Assembly (NCBI GenBank): GCA_029856105.1
Contig: JAHQWH010000221.1
Span: 1-14,419, forward strand
DNA: 14,419 nucleotides
Reading direction: 5' to 3'
DNA from: Promethearchaeia archaeon
Lineage (GTDB): Archaea > Asgardarchaeota > Lokiarchaeia > Sigyniarchaeales > SOKP01
Under the pieces are notes generated by a model. The model had not been told where the DNA came from and ran no database searches. It worked only from the letters and a program-made list of their open reading frames with translations. Shown here piece after piece: positions 3,246 to 14,419 of this stretch. The first letter of the stretch is position 1. Each line of letters opens with the position of its first letter. A program made the translations under genes and the position numbers.

Positions 3246-4247
3246 TTAGAGATTTCTTAATTTTGGGTCGAAGGTATCTCTTAATCCATCACCTAATAAT
3301 AAAAAGCCTACTACTGTAATTATTATCATAATACCAGGCCATACTGAAGCCCAAGGAGCATCTATAAAGTGATATCTAGCATCACCAATATCTGTACCCC
3401 ATTGAATTAGACTTTGATCGCTATAACCTAAAAAAGATAATGCTGCTAATGAAAGAACAATTCCCCCAATATCAAATGTAAGGTTAATAATTATTGGTTG
3501 ACTACAATTAGGTAAAATATGTTTAAACATTATTCTCCAATTACGCGCTCCAACAACCCTAGCAGCATCAATATATGGTAATGACTTTGCTTGAAGTACA
3601 GAGCCTCTAATTAAACGAGCATAAATTGGAATTCCGATTATACCATAAACTAAAATGATATTCCAAAAGTTTCGTCCTATTATTTGAAGAACAATCATCG
3701 CTAATATTAATCCGGGAAATGCTAATAAAATATCTCCGATTCTCATGATAATAGATCCAAACCACTTTCCATAATAAGCAGCTATGACTCCAAATAATAA
3801 ACCGAATATTACACTGAAGATAACTGAGGGAAATGCAATTATTAAAGCAGATTTAGCTCCAAATATTATGCGTGCTAAAATATCTCTTCCATAAGTTTGG
3901 CCTAATGGATGCTCAGAGGAAGGAGGAGACCATATATTTCCAACATAAAGATTTGCTTCTTCATAAGCATATGGAGATATCCATTCGGGAAAAACAGCGA
4001 GAGTTGTTACTATAAATACGATAACCAACCCGATTATTGTTAAAGGATTTATTAATCTATAAATAGTCCTTCTTTTACTAACAGTTCTTTCATATTCTCT
4101 ATCTCGAAAACTTAGGCTTTTAATTCTATACGCAGGAATGAGTAAAAATTTCAGATTTAAAAAAATCCTTTTAAAACTTTGTTGAGAACTTAATTTTTCA
4201 TCGTTGACTTCTTCAGAATCGATGGATTCTTTTGAACTATTTGTCAT
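3246..4247 (-). CDS. dppC: ABC transporter permease, DppC/OppC family
   Basis: PPSSEHPLGQTYGRDILARIIFGA, EAA loop YIDAARVVGA...IMFKHILPN, AALSFLG, GDGLRDTFDPK. Confidence 0.93.
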   Translation of the reverse strand: MTNSSKESIDSEEVNDEKLSSQQSFKRIFLNLKFLLIPAYRIKSLSFRDREYERTVSKRRTIYRLINPLTIIGLVIVFIVTTLAVFPEWISPYAYEEANLYVGNIWSPPSSEHPLGQTYGRDILARIIFGAKSALIIAFPSVIFSVIFGLLFGVIAAYYGKWFGSIIMRIGDILLAFPGLILAMIVLQIIGRNFWNIILVYGIIGIPIYARLIRGSVLQAKSLPYIDAARVVGARNWRIMFKHILPNCSQPIIINLTFDIGGIVLSLAALSFLGYSDQSLIQWGTDIGDARYHFIDAPWASVWPGIMIIITVVGFLLLGDGLRDTFDPKLRNL

Positions 4248-4479
4248 AACTCATACCTAAAAATCCACATAAAATTATTATTTTAGTTTTCTCAATTAAA
4301 TTTAAAAAATTTAAGTAAATTTAAAACTTTATCGTGTTCTGAGAAGATATTAAAAATAGATATTAAAATAAAATTAGATTGACCTTTATCAAAAAGAATC
4401 AAGATCCACTTATATAAACAAATCTTCCTGCTTCAGCATGCATTTAACGATGTTTTCCCTTTCTAGGTGTTCCATCAAT

Positions 4480-6579
4480 TTATTTTATTCTAAACGATGT
4501 TGATATAAAACTCTCCTCTTTAGAAGAGGGTCCAACATTCGCAATGTATTCTATTGGTTCAATAACCCATTTTTTCTTATTAGAATCGTAATACGATAGG
4601 TCTTCTGCTTTAAGTTTTAAGGTTAGCGTTTTAGTTTCTCCAGGGTTCAAATATACCTTCCCAAATCCTTTTAATTCTTTAATTGGACGATCAACTGAAG
4701 AGTTATTATAACTTATGTATAATTGTACGATTTCTTCTCCGGCTATGTGTCCATCGTTTGAAATATCTACGTTAAATTCTATTTTGGCATTTTTAGAAAT
4801 GGGTTCTTCATTCTTGCGAATATTTTTATAAGTATAAGTTGTATAACTTAGTCCATATCCAAAAGGGAAAGCAGGTTCATATCCATTTTTGTCCATTAAC
4901 TTGTATCCATGATAATATCCATATTCAATAGATTTTGCATATTTATCAAAGAAGGGAAGCTGATCTTCTGATTTTGGAAATACAATGGGAAGCTTACCAC
5001 ACGGATTAAATTTTCCAAAAATAACCTCACCAATTGCTGTTCCACCCTCCATTCCAGGATACCACGCCATTAATATTGCGGGAACTTTATCTTTCCAAGA
5101 TTCAACTATTATTGAACTTCCTCCTTCTAATACAACAATAGATTTCTCGTTTGCTGAAGCAATCGCTAATATTAGTCTTTCGTCTTCCTCTACCAATTCA
5201 AGCGAAACCCTATATCCTCCTAAAGGAGGAATATATTCGCCTTCGTCATCGCTTGTGTTGCCTACAACAACTATTACAGCGTCGGTTTGACGAGCTAATT
5301 TTTCAACGGTCTCAAGGTTTCTTCCATCGTTGTGTATTATTTCTACACTATTTCCAGCAGAATTTTTAATTCCCTCGAGAGGGGTTATTACGTAAGGCGG
5401 ATATACCCTGCTACTGCCGTTGTCTCCGATATTAGGTGTGTCTGCAAGCTTTCCTATCACTGCAATTTTTTTAATATTGTTTTTATTTAGTGGAAGTAGA
5501 TTTTTCTCATTTTTCAACAGCACTATACTTTTCCTCGCGGCATCTAATGCAAGCTGAATGTGCTCTTTGCATGCAACTTTATCTATATTATATATCGCAG
5601 GATCTCCTTCATGTGCGAATTTGAGTTTTAGTCTCAAAATTCTTAAAACGGTCTCATCAATTTGCTCTTCCGAAATTTTTCCCTTCTCTAAAAGCCTTAT
5701 CAACTTTTTTGGTTTCATACGAATTCCAAAAGGCATCTCAATATCAACTCCAGCATTTACTGCCTCCATTCCTTTTCGAATGCCCTGAACAAAATCTGTA
5801 ATTACAAAACCTTTGAAATTCCAATCAGTTTTTAGTATATCGCGTAAAAGATGTGAATTATGGCCACAATATTTTCCGTTGACCTTGTTATATGCATTCA
5901 TAACGGATGTTACACCTGCTTCGACGCATTTTTTAAAATGCCAAAGATACACTTCCCTTAAGGTCCGTTCATCTATTTTTACGTCAACTTCAAATCGCAT
6001 GTTCTCCATGCTATTACACGCGTAATGTTTTGCACACGACATTACATGCTTCTGCGTTCCTTTTATGAGGGCTACTCCAAAGGCTCCAAGATGAAAAGTA
6101 TCTTCGCCATAAGTTTCCTGAGCCCTACCCCATGTGGGATGTCTCAGAAGATTAATACAAACGCCACCAAAATAATTAGCTCCTTGAGCTTTTGCTTCGA
6201 TTCCGATCGCATTTCCTATATTTTCTTCTAGTTCCAAATCCCACATTGCCCCTCTTGCCATAGAAACAGGAAAACAAGTAGAATTACCCAATGCAACGCC
6301 TCTAGGACCATCAATGAATTCAATACCGGGAATTCCAAGATTATCATCAACACCAGCAGGGACGGGTTTATAATTATATCTTGATTCTGAACCCTCCCAA
6401 CTCTCCGAACTCTCCGAACTCTCCGAACTCTCAAAATGAATACCAAGCTTACCATCACCAACCATCTGCCACGTTTTTTCTTTTATAGTCATAAGTGAAA
6501 GAATTTCTCGTGCTTTTTTGTTAATCTCATCTTCTGAGAGCCCAATTAACTCGTCCCACTTTAATTTTCGTTCAGCCAT
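4480..6579 (-). CDS. Glycoside hydrolase family 3 beta-glucosidase with C-terminal Fn3-like domain
   Basis: DGPRGV, GRAQETYGED, CAKHYACN, FKGFVITD (nucleophile), SIVLLKN, AWYPGMEGG, FPFGYGLSYTTY, RPIKELKGF. 699 aa, no signal peptide. Confidence 0.95.
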   Translation of the reverse strand: MAERKLKWDELIGLSEDEINKKAREILSLMTIKEKTWQMVGDGKLGIHFESSESSESSESWEGSESRYNYKPVPAGVDDNLGIPGIEFIDGPRGVALGNSTCFPVSMARGAMWDLELEENIGNAIGIEAKAQGANYFGGVCINLLRHPTWGRAQETYGEDTFHLGAFGVALIKGTQKHVMSCAKHYACNSMENMRFEVDVKIDERTLREVYLWHFKKCVEAGVTSVMNAYNKVNGKYCGHNSHLLRDILKTDWNFKGFVITDFVQGIRKGMEAVNAGVDIEMPFGIRMKPKKLIRLLEKGKISEEQIDETVLRILRLKLKFAHEGDPAIYNIDKVACKEHIQLALDAARKSIVLLKNEKNLLPLNKNNIKKIAVIGKLADTPNIGDNGSSRVYPPYVITPLEGIKNSAGNSVEIIHNDGRNLETVEKLARQTDAVIVVVGNTSDDEGEYIPPLGGYRVSLELVEEDERLILAIASANEKSIVVLEGGSSIIVESWKDKVPAILMAWYPGMEGGTAIGEVIFGKFNPCGKLPIVFPKSEDQLPFFDKYAKSIEYGYYHGYKLMDKNGYEPAFPFGYGLSYTTYTYKNIRKNEEPISKNAKIEFNVDISNDGHIAGEEIVQLYISYNNSSVDRPIKELKGFGKVYLNPGETKTLTLKLKAEDLSYYDSNKKKWVIEPIEYIANVGPSSKEESFISTSFRIK
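6390..6432. repeat. In-frame 9-bp tandem repeat (AACTCTCCG) inside the GH3 gene, encoding (ESS)n
   Basis: Perfect copies at 6399-6407, 6408-6416 and 6417-6425, a partial copy at 6426-6432 and a degenerate copy aaccctccc at 6390-6398. Translates as FESSESSESSESWEGSES. Confidence 0.92.
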
Positions 6580-12276: not shown

Positions 12277-12741
12277 TTAGAGATATTTGACCCAGATTAC
12301 TGCATCATCGTTAGGATACAAAGAGGGAATGTCTGAAACTTTGCGAAAGTCCATATGGTTATAGAATAGTTCTCCAATATTGTTGCTTTTTTCCATAAAG
12401 AGATAAATAACTCGCAATTTATATCCAGCTTTAGAGAAATATTTGTTTGCTTCATTTATTAGCATTATCACTAATTCTCTTGCTATCCCTTGTCGTTTAA
12501 AATTGGAAGATGTGCCTAATCCAACTATCTCTATAACACCGTCATCCAAACCACCACGAGTATCCCATGTAATAGTTCCTATAATGTTTTTATCGCATAC
12601 GCAAATTAATGTTTTAAACCGATAAATTAAATCTTTCGCAAATTGTTGGGCGCGCTGTTTATGGTTTTCGACTTCGTCTAAATACATCTTTACGAGAATA
12701 TCCATGTCTTTTTCTGTAGCGTTTCTTATTATTTTATCCAT
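12277..12741 (-). CDS. GNAT family N-acetyltransferase
   Basis: IIRNATEKD N-terminus, acetyl-CoA motif A FKRQGIAREL, N..GELFYNHMDF. GAAGGTGA ribosome-binding site upstream. Confidence 0.88.
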   Translation of the reverse strand: MDKIIRNATEKDMDILVKMYLDEVENHKQRAQQFAKDLIYRFKTLICVCDKNIIGTITWDTRGGLDDGVIEIVGLGTSSNFKRQGIARELVIMLINEANKYFSKAGYKLRVIYLFMEKSNNIGELFYNHMDFRKVSDIPSLYPNDDAVIWVKYL

Positions 12742-12780: not shown

Positions 12781-13749
12781 TTAAGTTTGAGATAGAAGGT
12801 CGATTAAAGCCCGAGGAATTTCCTTGTAGTCGTTTACAGCGTAAAACTTTCCTCTCCCTGCTTTTGCTAATTTCCGACAGGTATCAATCCCACGATCTGC
12901 ATCATTTCCAGCAGGCATGCCAATCACATGTAGTGTGGGATATTTTTTAGCAAAATCTAGAGGATCTTTGCCTCTATTATAATTTCCATCACTAATAAGA
13001 ATACCAAACTTATGACGTGTTTTTTCTCTCACTTTATTAAGCTCTTTAAGCCCTTTTTCAAGCCCGATTTCAATATTTGTAAAACCAACGGCTTCAGAAT
13101 CTAATATTTCATCAATTATGTTGTTTATAGGCTTTTTTTGATCAATTTTCTTGAGAACCATTGCGGTTGAGTTGAATAAAACTATGCCGTATTCTTCTTT
13201 TTCCATATTATAGGCTAAAACGGAAGTAGTGAGAGCTGCATTAAGTAAAAGTTTGCCGTACATGCTTCCACTTGTGTCAAGAATCAGAACAATTTTCCTT
13301 TTCTCTCGTTGTCTTCTTATTCCGTAGATATTTTTATAAGTTAAACTTTTTTTGTAAATGTTCAATGGATTGTGCTGAATAGTTTCATCTAAGTCAAACT
13401 CTGGCATCCCAATATGATAGTAAGGAACAGTTTTCTTATAATTTCCTCTAATTCCCTTACTCGTTATTTTTAAGGAAGTTTTCAATATGCTCTGTCTGGC
13501 TAGCCTTCTAAAAATTTTTTTGTATTTTTCTGAAATTGGACGTCTTATAAAAAAGTAGACTTCTGCCATAGAGGCTTCAGAATTTTTTGCTTTTTCTGTG
13601 AAGAACTTCACGCCTTCGTCACAATCCAAAGCGTCGGTTGAAGCATATACATTTGACTTAAGTAAGCCTAATATTGCTTCGAGATTCTTGTATTGAATAG
13701 CTAAGTAAGTTAGTTCCTTAATCTTTTTGTAGTCTAACGTATTTGCCAA
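12781..13749 (-). CDS. von Willebrand factor A (vWA) domain protein, MoxR partner; true 5' end probably further upstream
   Basis: MIDAS residues ILDTSGSM, GFTNI, ISDG. Pre-vWA EFDLDETI motif. The TTG start at 13749 is doubtful because the frame is open up to 13950 with protein-like sequence. Confidence 0.88.
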   Translation of the reverse strand: MANTLDYKKIKELTYLAIQYKNLEAILGLLKSNVYASTDALDCDEGVKFFTEKAKNSEASMAEVYFFIRRPISEKYKKIFRRLARQSILKTSLKITSKGIRGNYKKTVPYYHIGMPEFDLDETIQHNPLNIYKKSLTYKNIYGIRRQREKRKIVLILDTSGSMYGKLLLNAALTTSVLAYNMEKEEYGIVLFNSTAMVLKKIDQKKPINNIIDEILDSEAVGFTNIEIGLEKGLKELNKVREKTRHKFGILISDGNYNRGKDPLDFAKKYPTLHVIGMPAGNDADRGIDTCRKLAKAGRGKFYAVNDYKEIPRALIDLLSQT

Positions 13750-13892
13750 ATGCTGGTAATAATCTGGTTTTTTCCTTTTTTTCCGAATTATTTCAAATCT
13801 TAAGATCTCTCCATCGGGAAGCCTTTCCGTAAGTCTAACGTGAAGTCTTTTACTCTCAATCTCCTCGGAATCCTCCGCAGAGAAATCATCGA

Positions 13893-14419
13893 TTATTGAA
13901 AATCCATTTTGTTTAAAACTGATAGTACAATGTCTGTAATAATTTCGGTTTTAGAACTGGTTACGCCATCTTCAAGGTCAATCTTGTTATATAAAGCCAT
14001 GATTGCCGCATCGACCCAATTTTTTGAACTTTTTTCATTTTCCGATTTCGAAATTAACTCTGCCAAATCAATTGCGCCTCTTATCGAACTTCCTCTGCGT
14101 ATTGAATTGTTATTTCTTGAAATTTGAACTATTTGTTGTGAAATTATTGCGATTTCATCACTGCTAGGATTATTCAAATTGGCTTCTTGTTTAATAATGA
14201 GAATTTCTTCTTCAGGAGGTTGAAAATCTAATTTTATCCAAATAAACCTATCTTTTAAAGCCTCTCCTATAACGGTCACGCCTATATGAGCGGCAGGATT
14301 TTGTGTGGCAATGACAAAAAACTTTTTATGAGCTTTAATTGTTTTTAGTTTAGGTATTTCAATCGTGCCTTCGTCTAATGCAGTTAAAAGAGAATTTTGA
14401 GTGCTCTCAGGCATTCTGT
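13893..14419 (-). CDS. MoxR-family AAA+ ATPase, 5'-truncated by window edge
   Basis: Begins just after Walker B ((N)RMPESTQNSLLTALDEG). Sensor 1 FFVIATQNP, arginine finger EALKDRF, sensor 2 GSSIRGAIDL. The frame is open to the window edge, so ATG 14414 is internal. Confidence 0.9.
   Translation of the reverse strand, partial: RMPESTQNSLLTALDEGTIEIPKLKTIKAHKKFFVIATQNPAAHIGVTVIGEALKDRFIWIKLDFQPPEEEILIIKQEANLNNPSSDEIAIISQQIVQISRNNNSIRRGSSIRGAIDLAELISKSENEKSSKNWVDAAIMALYNKIDLEDGVTSSKTEIITDIVLSVLNKMDFQ
13911..13917 (-). other. Candidate -1 ribosomal frameshift slippery heptamer T_TTA_AAC
   Basis: X_XXY_YYZ in the correct phase of the AAA+ frame (gtT TTA AAC), 5 sense codons before its stop. The -1 frame is the vWA frame. 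Confidence 0.5.

Follow-up and report, generated by a model that had tools for sequence, protein, structure and literature searches.

How is a protein translated from a reading frame that has no start codon for its first 67 codons and that lies in the −1 frame of the gene in front of it? The question is raised by an ATPase gene and its vWA partner in the window, i.e. the whole analysed DNA stretch of 14,419 nt, which is one full contig of the 3.66-Mb MAG G000 (238 contigs, 92% complete, 6% contamination). A sequence-only reading of this DNA had put forward programmed −1 frameshifting as the way in which a MoxR-type AAA+ ATPase becomes fused to the vWA protein, and had named two candidate slip sites. 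Here, this proposal is followed up mainly by comparison with orthologous Asgard loci.

Layout of the ATPase–vWA junction

The features of the junction all lie on the minus strand. The 3′ part of the ATPase gene (13893–14417; AAA_3 at E 6e-9, AAA_5) defines the zero frame; because the stretch is an entire contig, whose end cuts the gene, only the last 174 ATPase codons and the stop TAA (13895–13893) are present. The gene ends with GTT (13919–13917) TTA AAC AAA ATG GAT (13904–13902) TTT (13901–13899) CAA TAA, and so carries two correctly phased heptamers, T_TTA_AAC (13911–13917) and G_GAT_TTT (13899–13905), the latter one codon before UAA. Relative to the ATPase, the vWA is encoded in frame −1, which is free of stops from 13950 to 12781 (389 codons); its first canonical start, a TTG at 13747–13749, stands 67 codons in, is the choice of the gene callers and is not conserved, being absent in the orthologous locus L003. 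On re-reading, the proposed layout proved correct in its ATPase 3′-end, in the −1 frame open from 13950 without ATG, GTG or TTG for 67 codons, and in the minus-strand coordinates and phasing of both heptamers, while the translation given for the supposedly intergenic part (FKQNGFSIIDDFSAEDSEE...YYQHL) was reproduced exactly.

Decoded after a shift at G_GAT_TTT, the −1 frame would extend over 12781–13899, with 372 codons (S-I-I-D-D-F-S...) and a stop at 12783–12781, and together with the ATPase would give a predicted fusion of ∼661 aa (289 + 372 aa in the orthologue L003). Its start-less segment, 13750–13899, when read as translated, comprises an acidic linker together with the first part of a conserved N-terminal region (..EEIExKRLHVRLTE..).

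Identities of the two proteins

A domain scan agreed with the proposed identities, giving AAA_3/AAA_5 upstream and VWA downstream. The full-length orthologous ATPase has 290 aa (L003:686-1555), matches AAA_3 and AAA_5 at E 1e-19 and 68 bits each (cut-offs 27 and 22) and contains the Walker A motif GSVGVGKT; the solved relatives found for it were the MoxR-family protein 2r44, CbbQ and NorQ. Its Walker B is of the form hhhNE (LFINEINR) in place of hhhDE, a family-wide trait that includes the in-frame fusions P0148 and P0155 described below. Judged from these profile matches, the ATPase is MoxR-class and not ChlI/ChlD. Membership in the chelatases was considered and rejected: PF01078 (Mg_chelatase) matched the ATPase only as a 54-residue fragment (E 4e-5), the chelatase models TIGR02031 and TIGR02442 reached 18.4 bits (cut-off 499.6) and 20.7 bits (cut-off 779), respectively, and no match to CobN/ChlH (PF02514) was obtained in the 92% complete G000, in which positive controls worked. 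As the ATPase is not of the ChlI/ChlD type and CobN/ChlH was not found, the locus is not a member of the frameshifted chlD family. Midasin was likewise dismissed as a special relative, since six AAA domains together make up its E-value of 1e-34, and the best single one scored ∼40 bits, no better than CbbQ (39.5) or MoxR 2r44 (50); the midasin domain logic of an AAA_5 ring, an acidic linker and a MIDAS resembles the predicted fusion by analogy only.

The vWA domain was located at 12814–13293 (VWA, E 1.8e-10, 41.8 bits, cut-off 23.8). Its MIDAS is intact, with D225-x-S227-x-S229 (13264–13278), T291 and D321, and these columns are invariant in an alignment of 20 relatives. For the vWA N-terminal region, neither sequence nor profile search found a solved relative.

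A phased heptamer and the −1 relation are conserved across most Asgard families

An orthologue was found in 256 of 400 sampled Asgard genomes, and the comparison set was made up of 79 orthologous loci, drawn from 24 GTDB families within the phylum. The vWA frame lay in −1 and was accompanied by a phased U-run heptamer (N_NNT_TTT or T_TTT_TTY) in 71 of the 79 loci, covering 19 of the 24 families and several closed genomes, so that the pattern exceeds chance and the −1 overlap, for which conservation had been anticipated, is shared by most of the orthologues. Among these 71 −1 loci, G_GAT_TTT was the commonest heptamer (36), followed by A_AAT_TTT (14) and T_TTT_TTC (8), and the rarer ones were A_GAT_TTT (3), T_TTT_TTA (3) and others (7); the zero-frame stop came 0–1 codons after the heptamer in 69 of them. 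The codon between UUU and the stop was mostly CAA, CAG, CGN or CAY, and 19 loci had none, with the stop directly following UUU. On G_GAT_TTT the re-pairing would be perfect in the A site and partial in the P site (G_GAU), while A_AAT_TTT, C_CCT_TTT and T_TTT_TTC/A of the relatives fit X_XXY_YYZ fully.

The residue before Phe differs between families (D/N/H/P/L/G), yet the third base of its codon is always T; elsewhere in these genes, NAT accounts for 75% of NAY and TTT for 65% of Phe codons. An invariant third-position T despite a changing residue indicates that the nucleotide is constrained in addition to the protein. Some of the U-run conservation nevertheless belongs to the protein level, because the junction Phe is also kept as an amino acid in the separate-gene families (KFFR), and the counts overstate the independent support because the sampled loci are related. 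Full of stops upstream, the −1 frame becomes open no more than 3 nt from the heptamer in 24 loci and right at the heptamer in 4. Such an opening at or near the heptamer means that the frame change or start must fall at or after the heptamer, and the −1 stop within one codon upstream of it in the 24 loci leaves no space for another start or shift site.

Other arrangements were also observed. In families f18 and f32 the two are separate genes, with the vWA frame in +1 and its ATG 10–13 nt past the ATPase stop. Six loci of five families (L061, L076, L078, L079/L086 and L082) have a U-run and also a TTG or ATG that overlaps the stop or lies right next to it; independent vWA initiation is possible in these. 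The sole −1 locus without a U-run is L044 (genome G056, family f5), where A_AAC_CCT immediately precedes TGA, the −1 frame becomes open at this very heptamer, a TTG overlaps the ATPase stop and a kink-turn (k-turn)-like motif follows downstream; A_AAC_CCT may be a second type of slip site. In L083 (G177, a closed genome) and L088 (G285), from two families, the vWA frame is +1, overlaps the ATPase by 74 and 47 nt, respectively, and holds no start for >160 nt, and L088 shows a KRKIRLEE motif in the +1 frame just past the ATPase stop; both loci may be decaying or may use another, +1 type of recoding.

Substitution pattern of the start-less segment

The orthologues share no conserved start codon past the heptamer, and the called vWA proteins range from 294 to 367 aa. 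The expectation that orthologues would lack a vWA start was hence borne out in so far as no start is conserved, but it did not hold for a few Asgard families with a normal ATG or a stop-overlapping start. Within the genus, the variabilities at the three codon positions were 0.116/0.056/0.298 in the −1 frame upstream of the first canonical start and 0.101/0.012/0.296 in the undisputed downstream coding part. By this measure, the start-less segment evolves as coding sequence and is indistinguishable from the downstream part. The residues upstream of 13749, a lack of conservation of which would have spoken against the proposal, are conserved across the order and the phylum, and the −1 ORF is intact everywhere (∼370–390 codons) and under purifying selection.

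In-frame fusions are colinear with the conceptual −1 product

An exhaustive HMMER search retrieved many single-ORF proteins of 560–711 aa whose C-terminal half matches the vWA part. Ten of them were domain-scanned, and AAA_5/AAA_3 was found at the N-terminus in all ten and VWA at the C-terminus in nine; natural in-frame AAA_5+VWA proteins measure 580–711 aa. Two independent contigs carry the fused P0148 and five carry P0151; the contig of P0155 is of Asgard type, with EAP30, S17e and Spt5 as neighbours, and a further in-frame fusion (L089) was identified in an Asgard reference genome. When the conceptual −1 product of L003 (661 aa) was aligned with P0148, a single HSP joined residues 8–658 to 9–620 with 37.6% identity (E 2e-132), and P0155 and P0163 aligned likewise; where the shift product has DF|S at its junction, P0148 has DYS and P0155 has DFF. 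The in-frame fused homologues sought as a check on the proposal thus exist, and they are colinear with the conceptual −1 product as one piece.

The gene of the in-frame fusion P0155 (L050) reads GAT TTT TTT CGT at its junction (3868–3885), and a −1 slip on this seven-T run would meet a stop after three codons and leave an ATPase-only product, a dnaX-like logic that is the reverse of the arrangement in the −1 loci.

A −1 ribosomal frameshift weighed against its rivals

The main rival to a frameshift is coupled reinitiation without a proper start, by which two proteins would be made, the vWA protein starting after the UAA on a non-canonical codon (e.g. AUA in AUAA) or at an internal vWA start, and the −1 relation would be a relic of an ATGA/TTGA overlap. 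A 4-nt start/stop overlap does by itself yield the −1 relation, TTGA, ATGA or TGATG is found at the stop in L044, L061, L076, L078, L079 and L082, and the plainly separate genes with ATG of f18 and f32 imply that a free vWA protein can work. However, the stop-overlapping codon is ATA, TTA, GTA or CTA depending on the family, as dictated by the stop, with no conserved near-cognate start, and the one-step change from ATA to ATG (CAATAA to CAATGA, one A-to-G), which would give an ATGA overlap and keep the ATPase stop, was never fixed in the genus (0 of 27 loci). Reinitiation also leaves unexplained the invariant third-position T before UUU, the stop 0–1 codons later and the colinearity with the in-frame fusions, and so we regard it as unlikely. 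Could the base instead be gained in the transcript? RNA polymerase slippage on the T-run would add a base and bring some transcripts in frame (programmed transcriptional realignment), and runs of 6–7 T do occur in some families (T_TTT_TTC, T_TTT_TTA); frameshifted chlD genes with long A-runs have been suspected of the same (PMC3711429). Most loci, this stretch included, have only four T, whereas known transcriptional slippage requires ∼7–9 or more bases (PMC3711429), and the heptamer phasing and the nearby stop, both conserved, would be irrelevant to it, which makes slippage of the polymerase highly improbable here.

A shift in this stretch also or instead at T_TTA_AAC had to be considered, as this is a canonical, correctly phased heptamer and the −1 frame here is open from 13950. 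Only 5 of the 27 genus loci have it, and relatives read GTTCTAAAT, GTGTTAAAT or ATATTGAAT at the same position; a −1-frame stop lies between it and G_GAT_TTT in 20 of the 27, and the intervening −1 residues lack conservation, so little credence can be given to slipping there. Of the two slip sites put forward from the sequence alone, G_GAT_TTT thus stood up, with its U-run kept in 71 of 79 loci, and T_TTA_AAC did not. With only G_GAT_TTT conserved, the junction to be expected is ...LNKMDF|SIIDDFS..., for which the tryptic peptide from this stretch is MDFSIIDDFSAEDSEEIESK, and not ...SVLN/KQNGFSIIDD. Finally, that the stretch is one contig of a 238-contig MAG could raise the suspicion of an assembly indel or a vWA pseudogene, but the same arrangement recurs in 71 independent assemblies, single-contig genomes included, with a −1 ORF that is everywhere intact and under purifying selection, and, as far as comparison reaches, an artefact or decay can practically be dismissed.

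We therefore prefer programmed −1 ribosomal frameshifting at G_GAU_UUU, with a free ATPase and an ATPase–vWA fusion as its products, and give it a probability of roughly 80%, without RNA or protein data at hand. The comparison of loci establishes the conserved site, the frame relation, the lack of a conserved start, the coding-type evolution and the colinearity with fusions, and in these respects (heptamer, overlap, start and fusions) it supports the core of the initial proposal, namely a programmed −1 frameshift that joins a MoxR-class AAA+ to a vWA protein; that the shift is ribosomal, and how efficient it would be, are inferences. Ribosomes on the 290-aa ATPase ORF would reach G_GAU_UUU one codon short of UAA, where most would continue and terminate to give the free ATPase, and a fraction would slip back by one base, with tRNA-Phe leaving UUU for the UUU that overlaps it and tRNA-Asp leaving GAU for GGA. 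The shifted ribosomes would then read UCA AUA AUC... through the acidic linker, the conserved helical region and the MIDAS-bearing vWA domain, producing the predicted ∼661-aa fusion. A kink-turn-like hairpin directly behind the site could serve as the probable stimulator, possibly bound by L7Ae, for which no binding data exist. Both products may be needed, e.g. in a hexamer with one or few tethered vWA adaptors, by analogy with the 6:1 CbbQ:CbbO; this need is inferred, and so is, without having been shown, that the shift sets the ratio of free ATPase to fusion.

A kink-turn-like hairpin behind the heptamer

The hairpin spans 13857–13895 on the minus strand, with the C-stem UAAUC (13895–13891)/GAUUG (13861–13857), the bulge GAU (13890–13888), a tandem GA (13887–13886) opposite GA (13863–13862) and an inner hairpin CGGA/UCCG. 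The pattern UAAUC-GAU-GA-UUU ... GAG-GA-GAUUG meets the layout of a k-turn motif as a pattern of letters, with no binding or geometry data; a second register is possible, and in the MFE fold the region is paired in another way. Here, the ATPase stop sits inside the C-stem and the order of elements is permuted, the bulged strand coming first, and the spacer from heptamer to stem is 3–4 nt, against the usual 5–9 nt to a stimulatory structure. Most families have the order GA-[C-stem]-loop-[C-stem]-GAU-GA, starting 5–8 nt past the heptamer. Within the genus, the eight codons after the shift are near-frozen at synonymous sites, with a third-position variability of 0.048 versus ∼0.30.

A strict k-turn scan was performed, demanding a C-stem of 3 bp, a bulge of 3 nt, tandem GA/GA and two additional pairs, with a start no more than 9 nt from the heptamer, and the expectation was taken from dinucleotide shuffles. 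The pattern was detected in 22 of 27 genus loci (expected 3.1) and 17 of 33 other −1 loci (expected 1.4), and altogether in 43 of the 71 −1 loci, 28 failing, but in none of 5 separate-gene loci and none of 3 in-frame fusions. Only the strict scan discriminates; a relaxed one was uninformative (25 versus 13 expected, and 30 versus 10). The C-stem sequences are diverse (GGAGG/CCUCC, GGGAAUUCG/CGAAUUCCC, AGGAAUU/AAUUCCU, GGCUC/GAGCC and others), and in eight examples of equal length the C-stem was 94% paired, with three pairs changed on both sides and a covariation score of 0.405, compared with 0.157 in shuffles and ≤0.16 for slid partners. As these eight were picked by a scan that demands pairing, the numbers lean towards structure.

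The hairpin probably acts as a stimulator, although this role is inferred. A plain thermodynamic stimulator was rejected: the folding energy after the site was lower than in other windows of the same genes (−9.5 versus −5.8 kcal/mol), but little excess remained over dinucleotide shuffles (mean z −0.56 in 60 loci; z −1.1 in this stretch), which is not unusual. Rfam gave no meaningful match over 13600–14100. That the stimulator is a true kink-turn bound by L7Ae, by which the slip would come under protein control, is a tentative idea and rather doubtful without binding data. L7Ae-family genes are present in G000, and L7Ae is a component of the ribosome and of sRNPs; if the idea is true, the level of free L7Ae would determine the number of ATPase subunits that have a MIDAS/vWA adaptor tethered to them. 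No paper describing a k-turn that naturally stimulates frameshifting came up in a literature search; this would be the first natural k-turn frameshift signal and, if the kink-turn holds, a new class of frameshift stimulator. In SECIS elements bound by SBP2 and in L7Ae-bound k-turns, a C-stem, a 3-nt bulge and tandem G.A pairs adjoin the recoding site, and the pattern of letters here lies next to the proposed slip site in the same way.

Relation to known systems

The closest parallel is fs-chlD of the Mg/Co chelatases, in which a −1 shift makes one gene yield a short AAA+ and a long AAA+-linker-vWA subunit (PMC3711429, Antonov et al. 2013; PMC9227772, Kuznetsov et al. 2022). Like the Asgard locus, fs-chlD, which is found in archaea and bacteria, is annotated as two adjacent genes and has in-frame fused homologues. 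Its AAA+ is of the ChlI type, whereas that of the Asgard locus is MoxR-class (AAA_3/AAA_5); its tested sites are A-runs of 7–11, in contrast to a U-run; and no kink-turn has been reported for it, whereas the Asgard −1 loci mostly have a k-turn-like hairpin. In CbbQ-CbbO, NorQ-NorD, CoxD-CoxE and RavA-ViaA, an AAA_5/AAA_3 ATPase of ∼270–310 aa is likewise followed by a MIDAS-bearing vWA partner, but these are two genes with their own starts, while the Asgard vWA partner has none and would be reached by recoding. The dnaX gene (tau/gamma) of E. coli encodes two AAA+ clamp-loader-type subunits with a common N-terminus, and their ratio depends on a −1 shift, as is inferred for the Asgard products; the dnaX shift truncates the protein whereas the Asgard shift would extend it, and the dnaX site, A_AAA_AAG with an upstream SD and a plain hairpin, is unlike the Asgard one.

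In Archaea, fucA1 of Sulfolobus solfataricus is a cellular gene made up of two slightly overlapping ORFs, which a −1 shift at a heptamer within the overlap connects (PMC1616953; reviewed in PMC8211752), and a 2021 review listed only fucA1 and a suggested chelatase case as cellular archaeal −1 frameshifting (PMC8211752). The fucA1 arrangement is confined to few strains, uses A_AAA_AAT and gives a short product without known role; the Asgard case is phylum-wide, and its zero-frame product is itself a complete ATPase. A literature search found no description of this Asgard ATPase–vWA frameshift. If the preferred frameshift holds, the site, kept across most families, would be the broadest archaeal example of −1 frameshifting and would make recoding accessible to study in a natural setting, on the nearest relatives of the eukaryotic ribosome. 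Hundreds of entries annotated as "VWA domain-containing protein" with arbitrary starts would then be the C-terminal halves of a fusion, the device of encoding an AAA+ and an AAA+-vWA subunit in one gene would have arisen outside the chelatases too, and an AAA_5-linker-MIDAS product, midasin-like in domain logic, would occur in archaeal relatives of eukaryotes.

Genomic neighbourhood and a paralogous pair

Conserved gene neighbourhood was tried as a clue to function and set aside, as the neighbours are inconsistent across families. Within the genus, MoeA lies upstream of the locus (L018:1-576) and a GNAT acetyltransferase downstream of the vWA gene (12277–12741 in the window), and MoaA/MoaB/MoaC stand beside the fused P0148 (L070 1-1859); molybdenum-cofactor genes thus border the locus in two unrelated contexts. 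Other neighbourhoods contain CDC48 or BadF/BcrA; with such unrelated neighbours in other families, any connection with the maturation of Mo enzymes (cf. CoxD/CoxE) is no more than a lead.

The same genome also carries a conventional paralogous pair (L049, G000:C98; 540–1481 and 1500–4013), which is an internal contrast to the putatively recoded one. It consists of a MoxR gene for a 313-aa AAA_5 ATPase and, after a 19-nt gap, a gene for an 837-aa vWA protein with its own ATG, and is followed by a third ORF (4018–6378) encoding 786 aa without a Pfam match.
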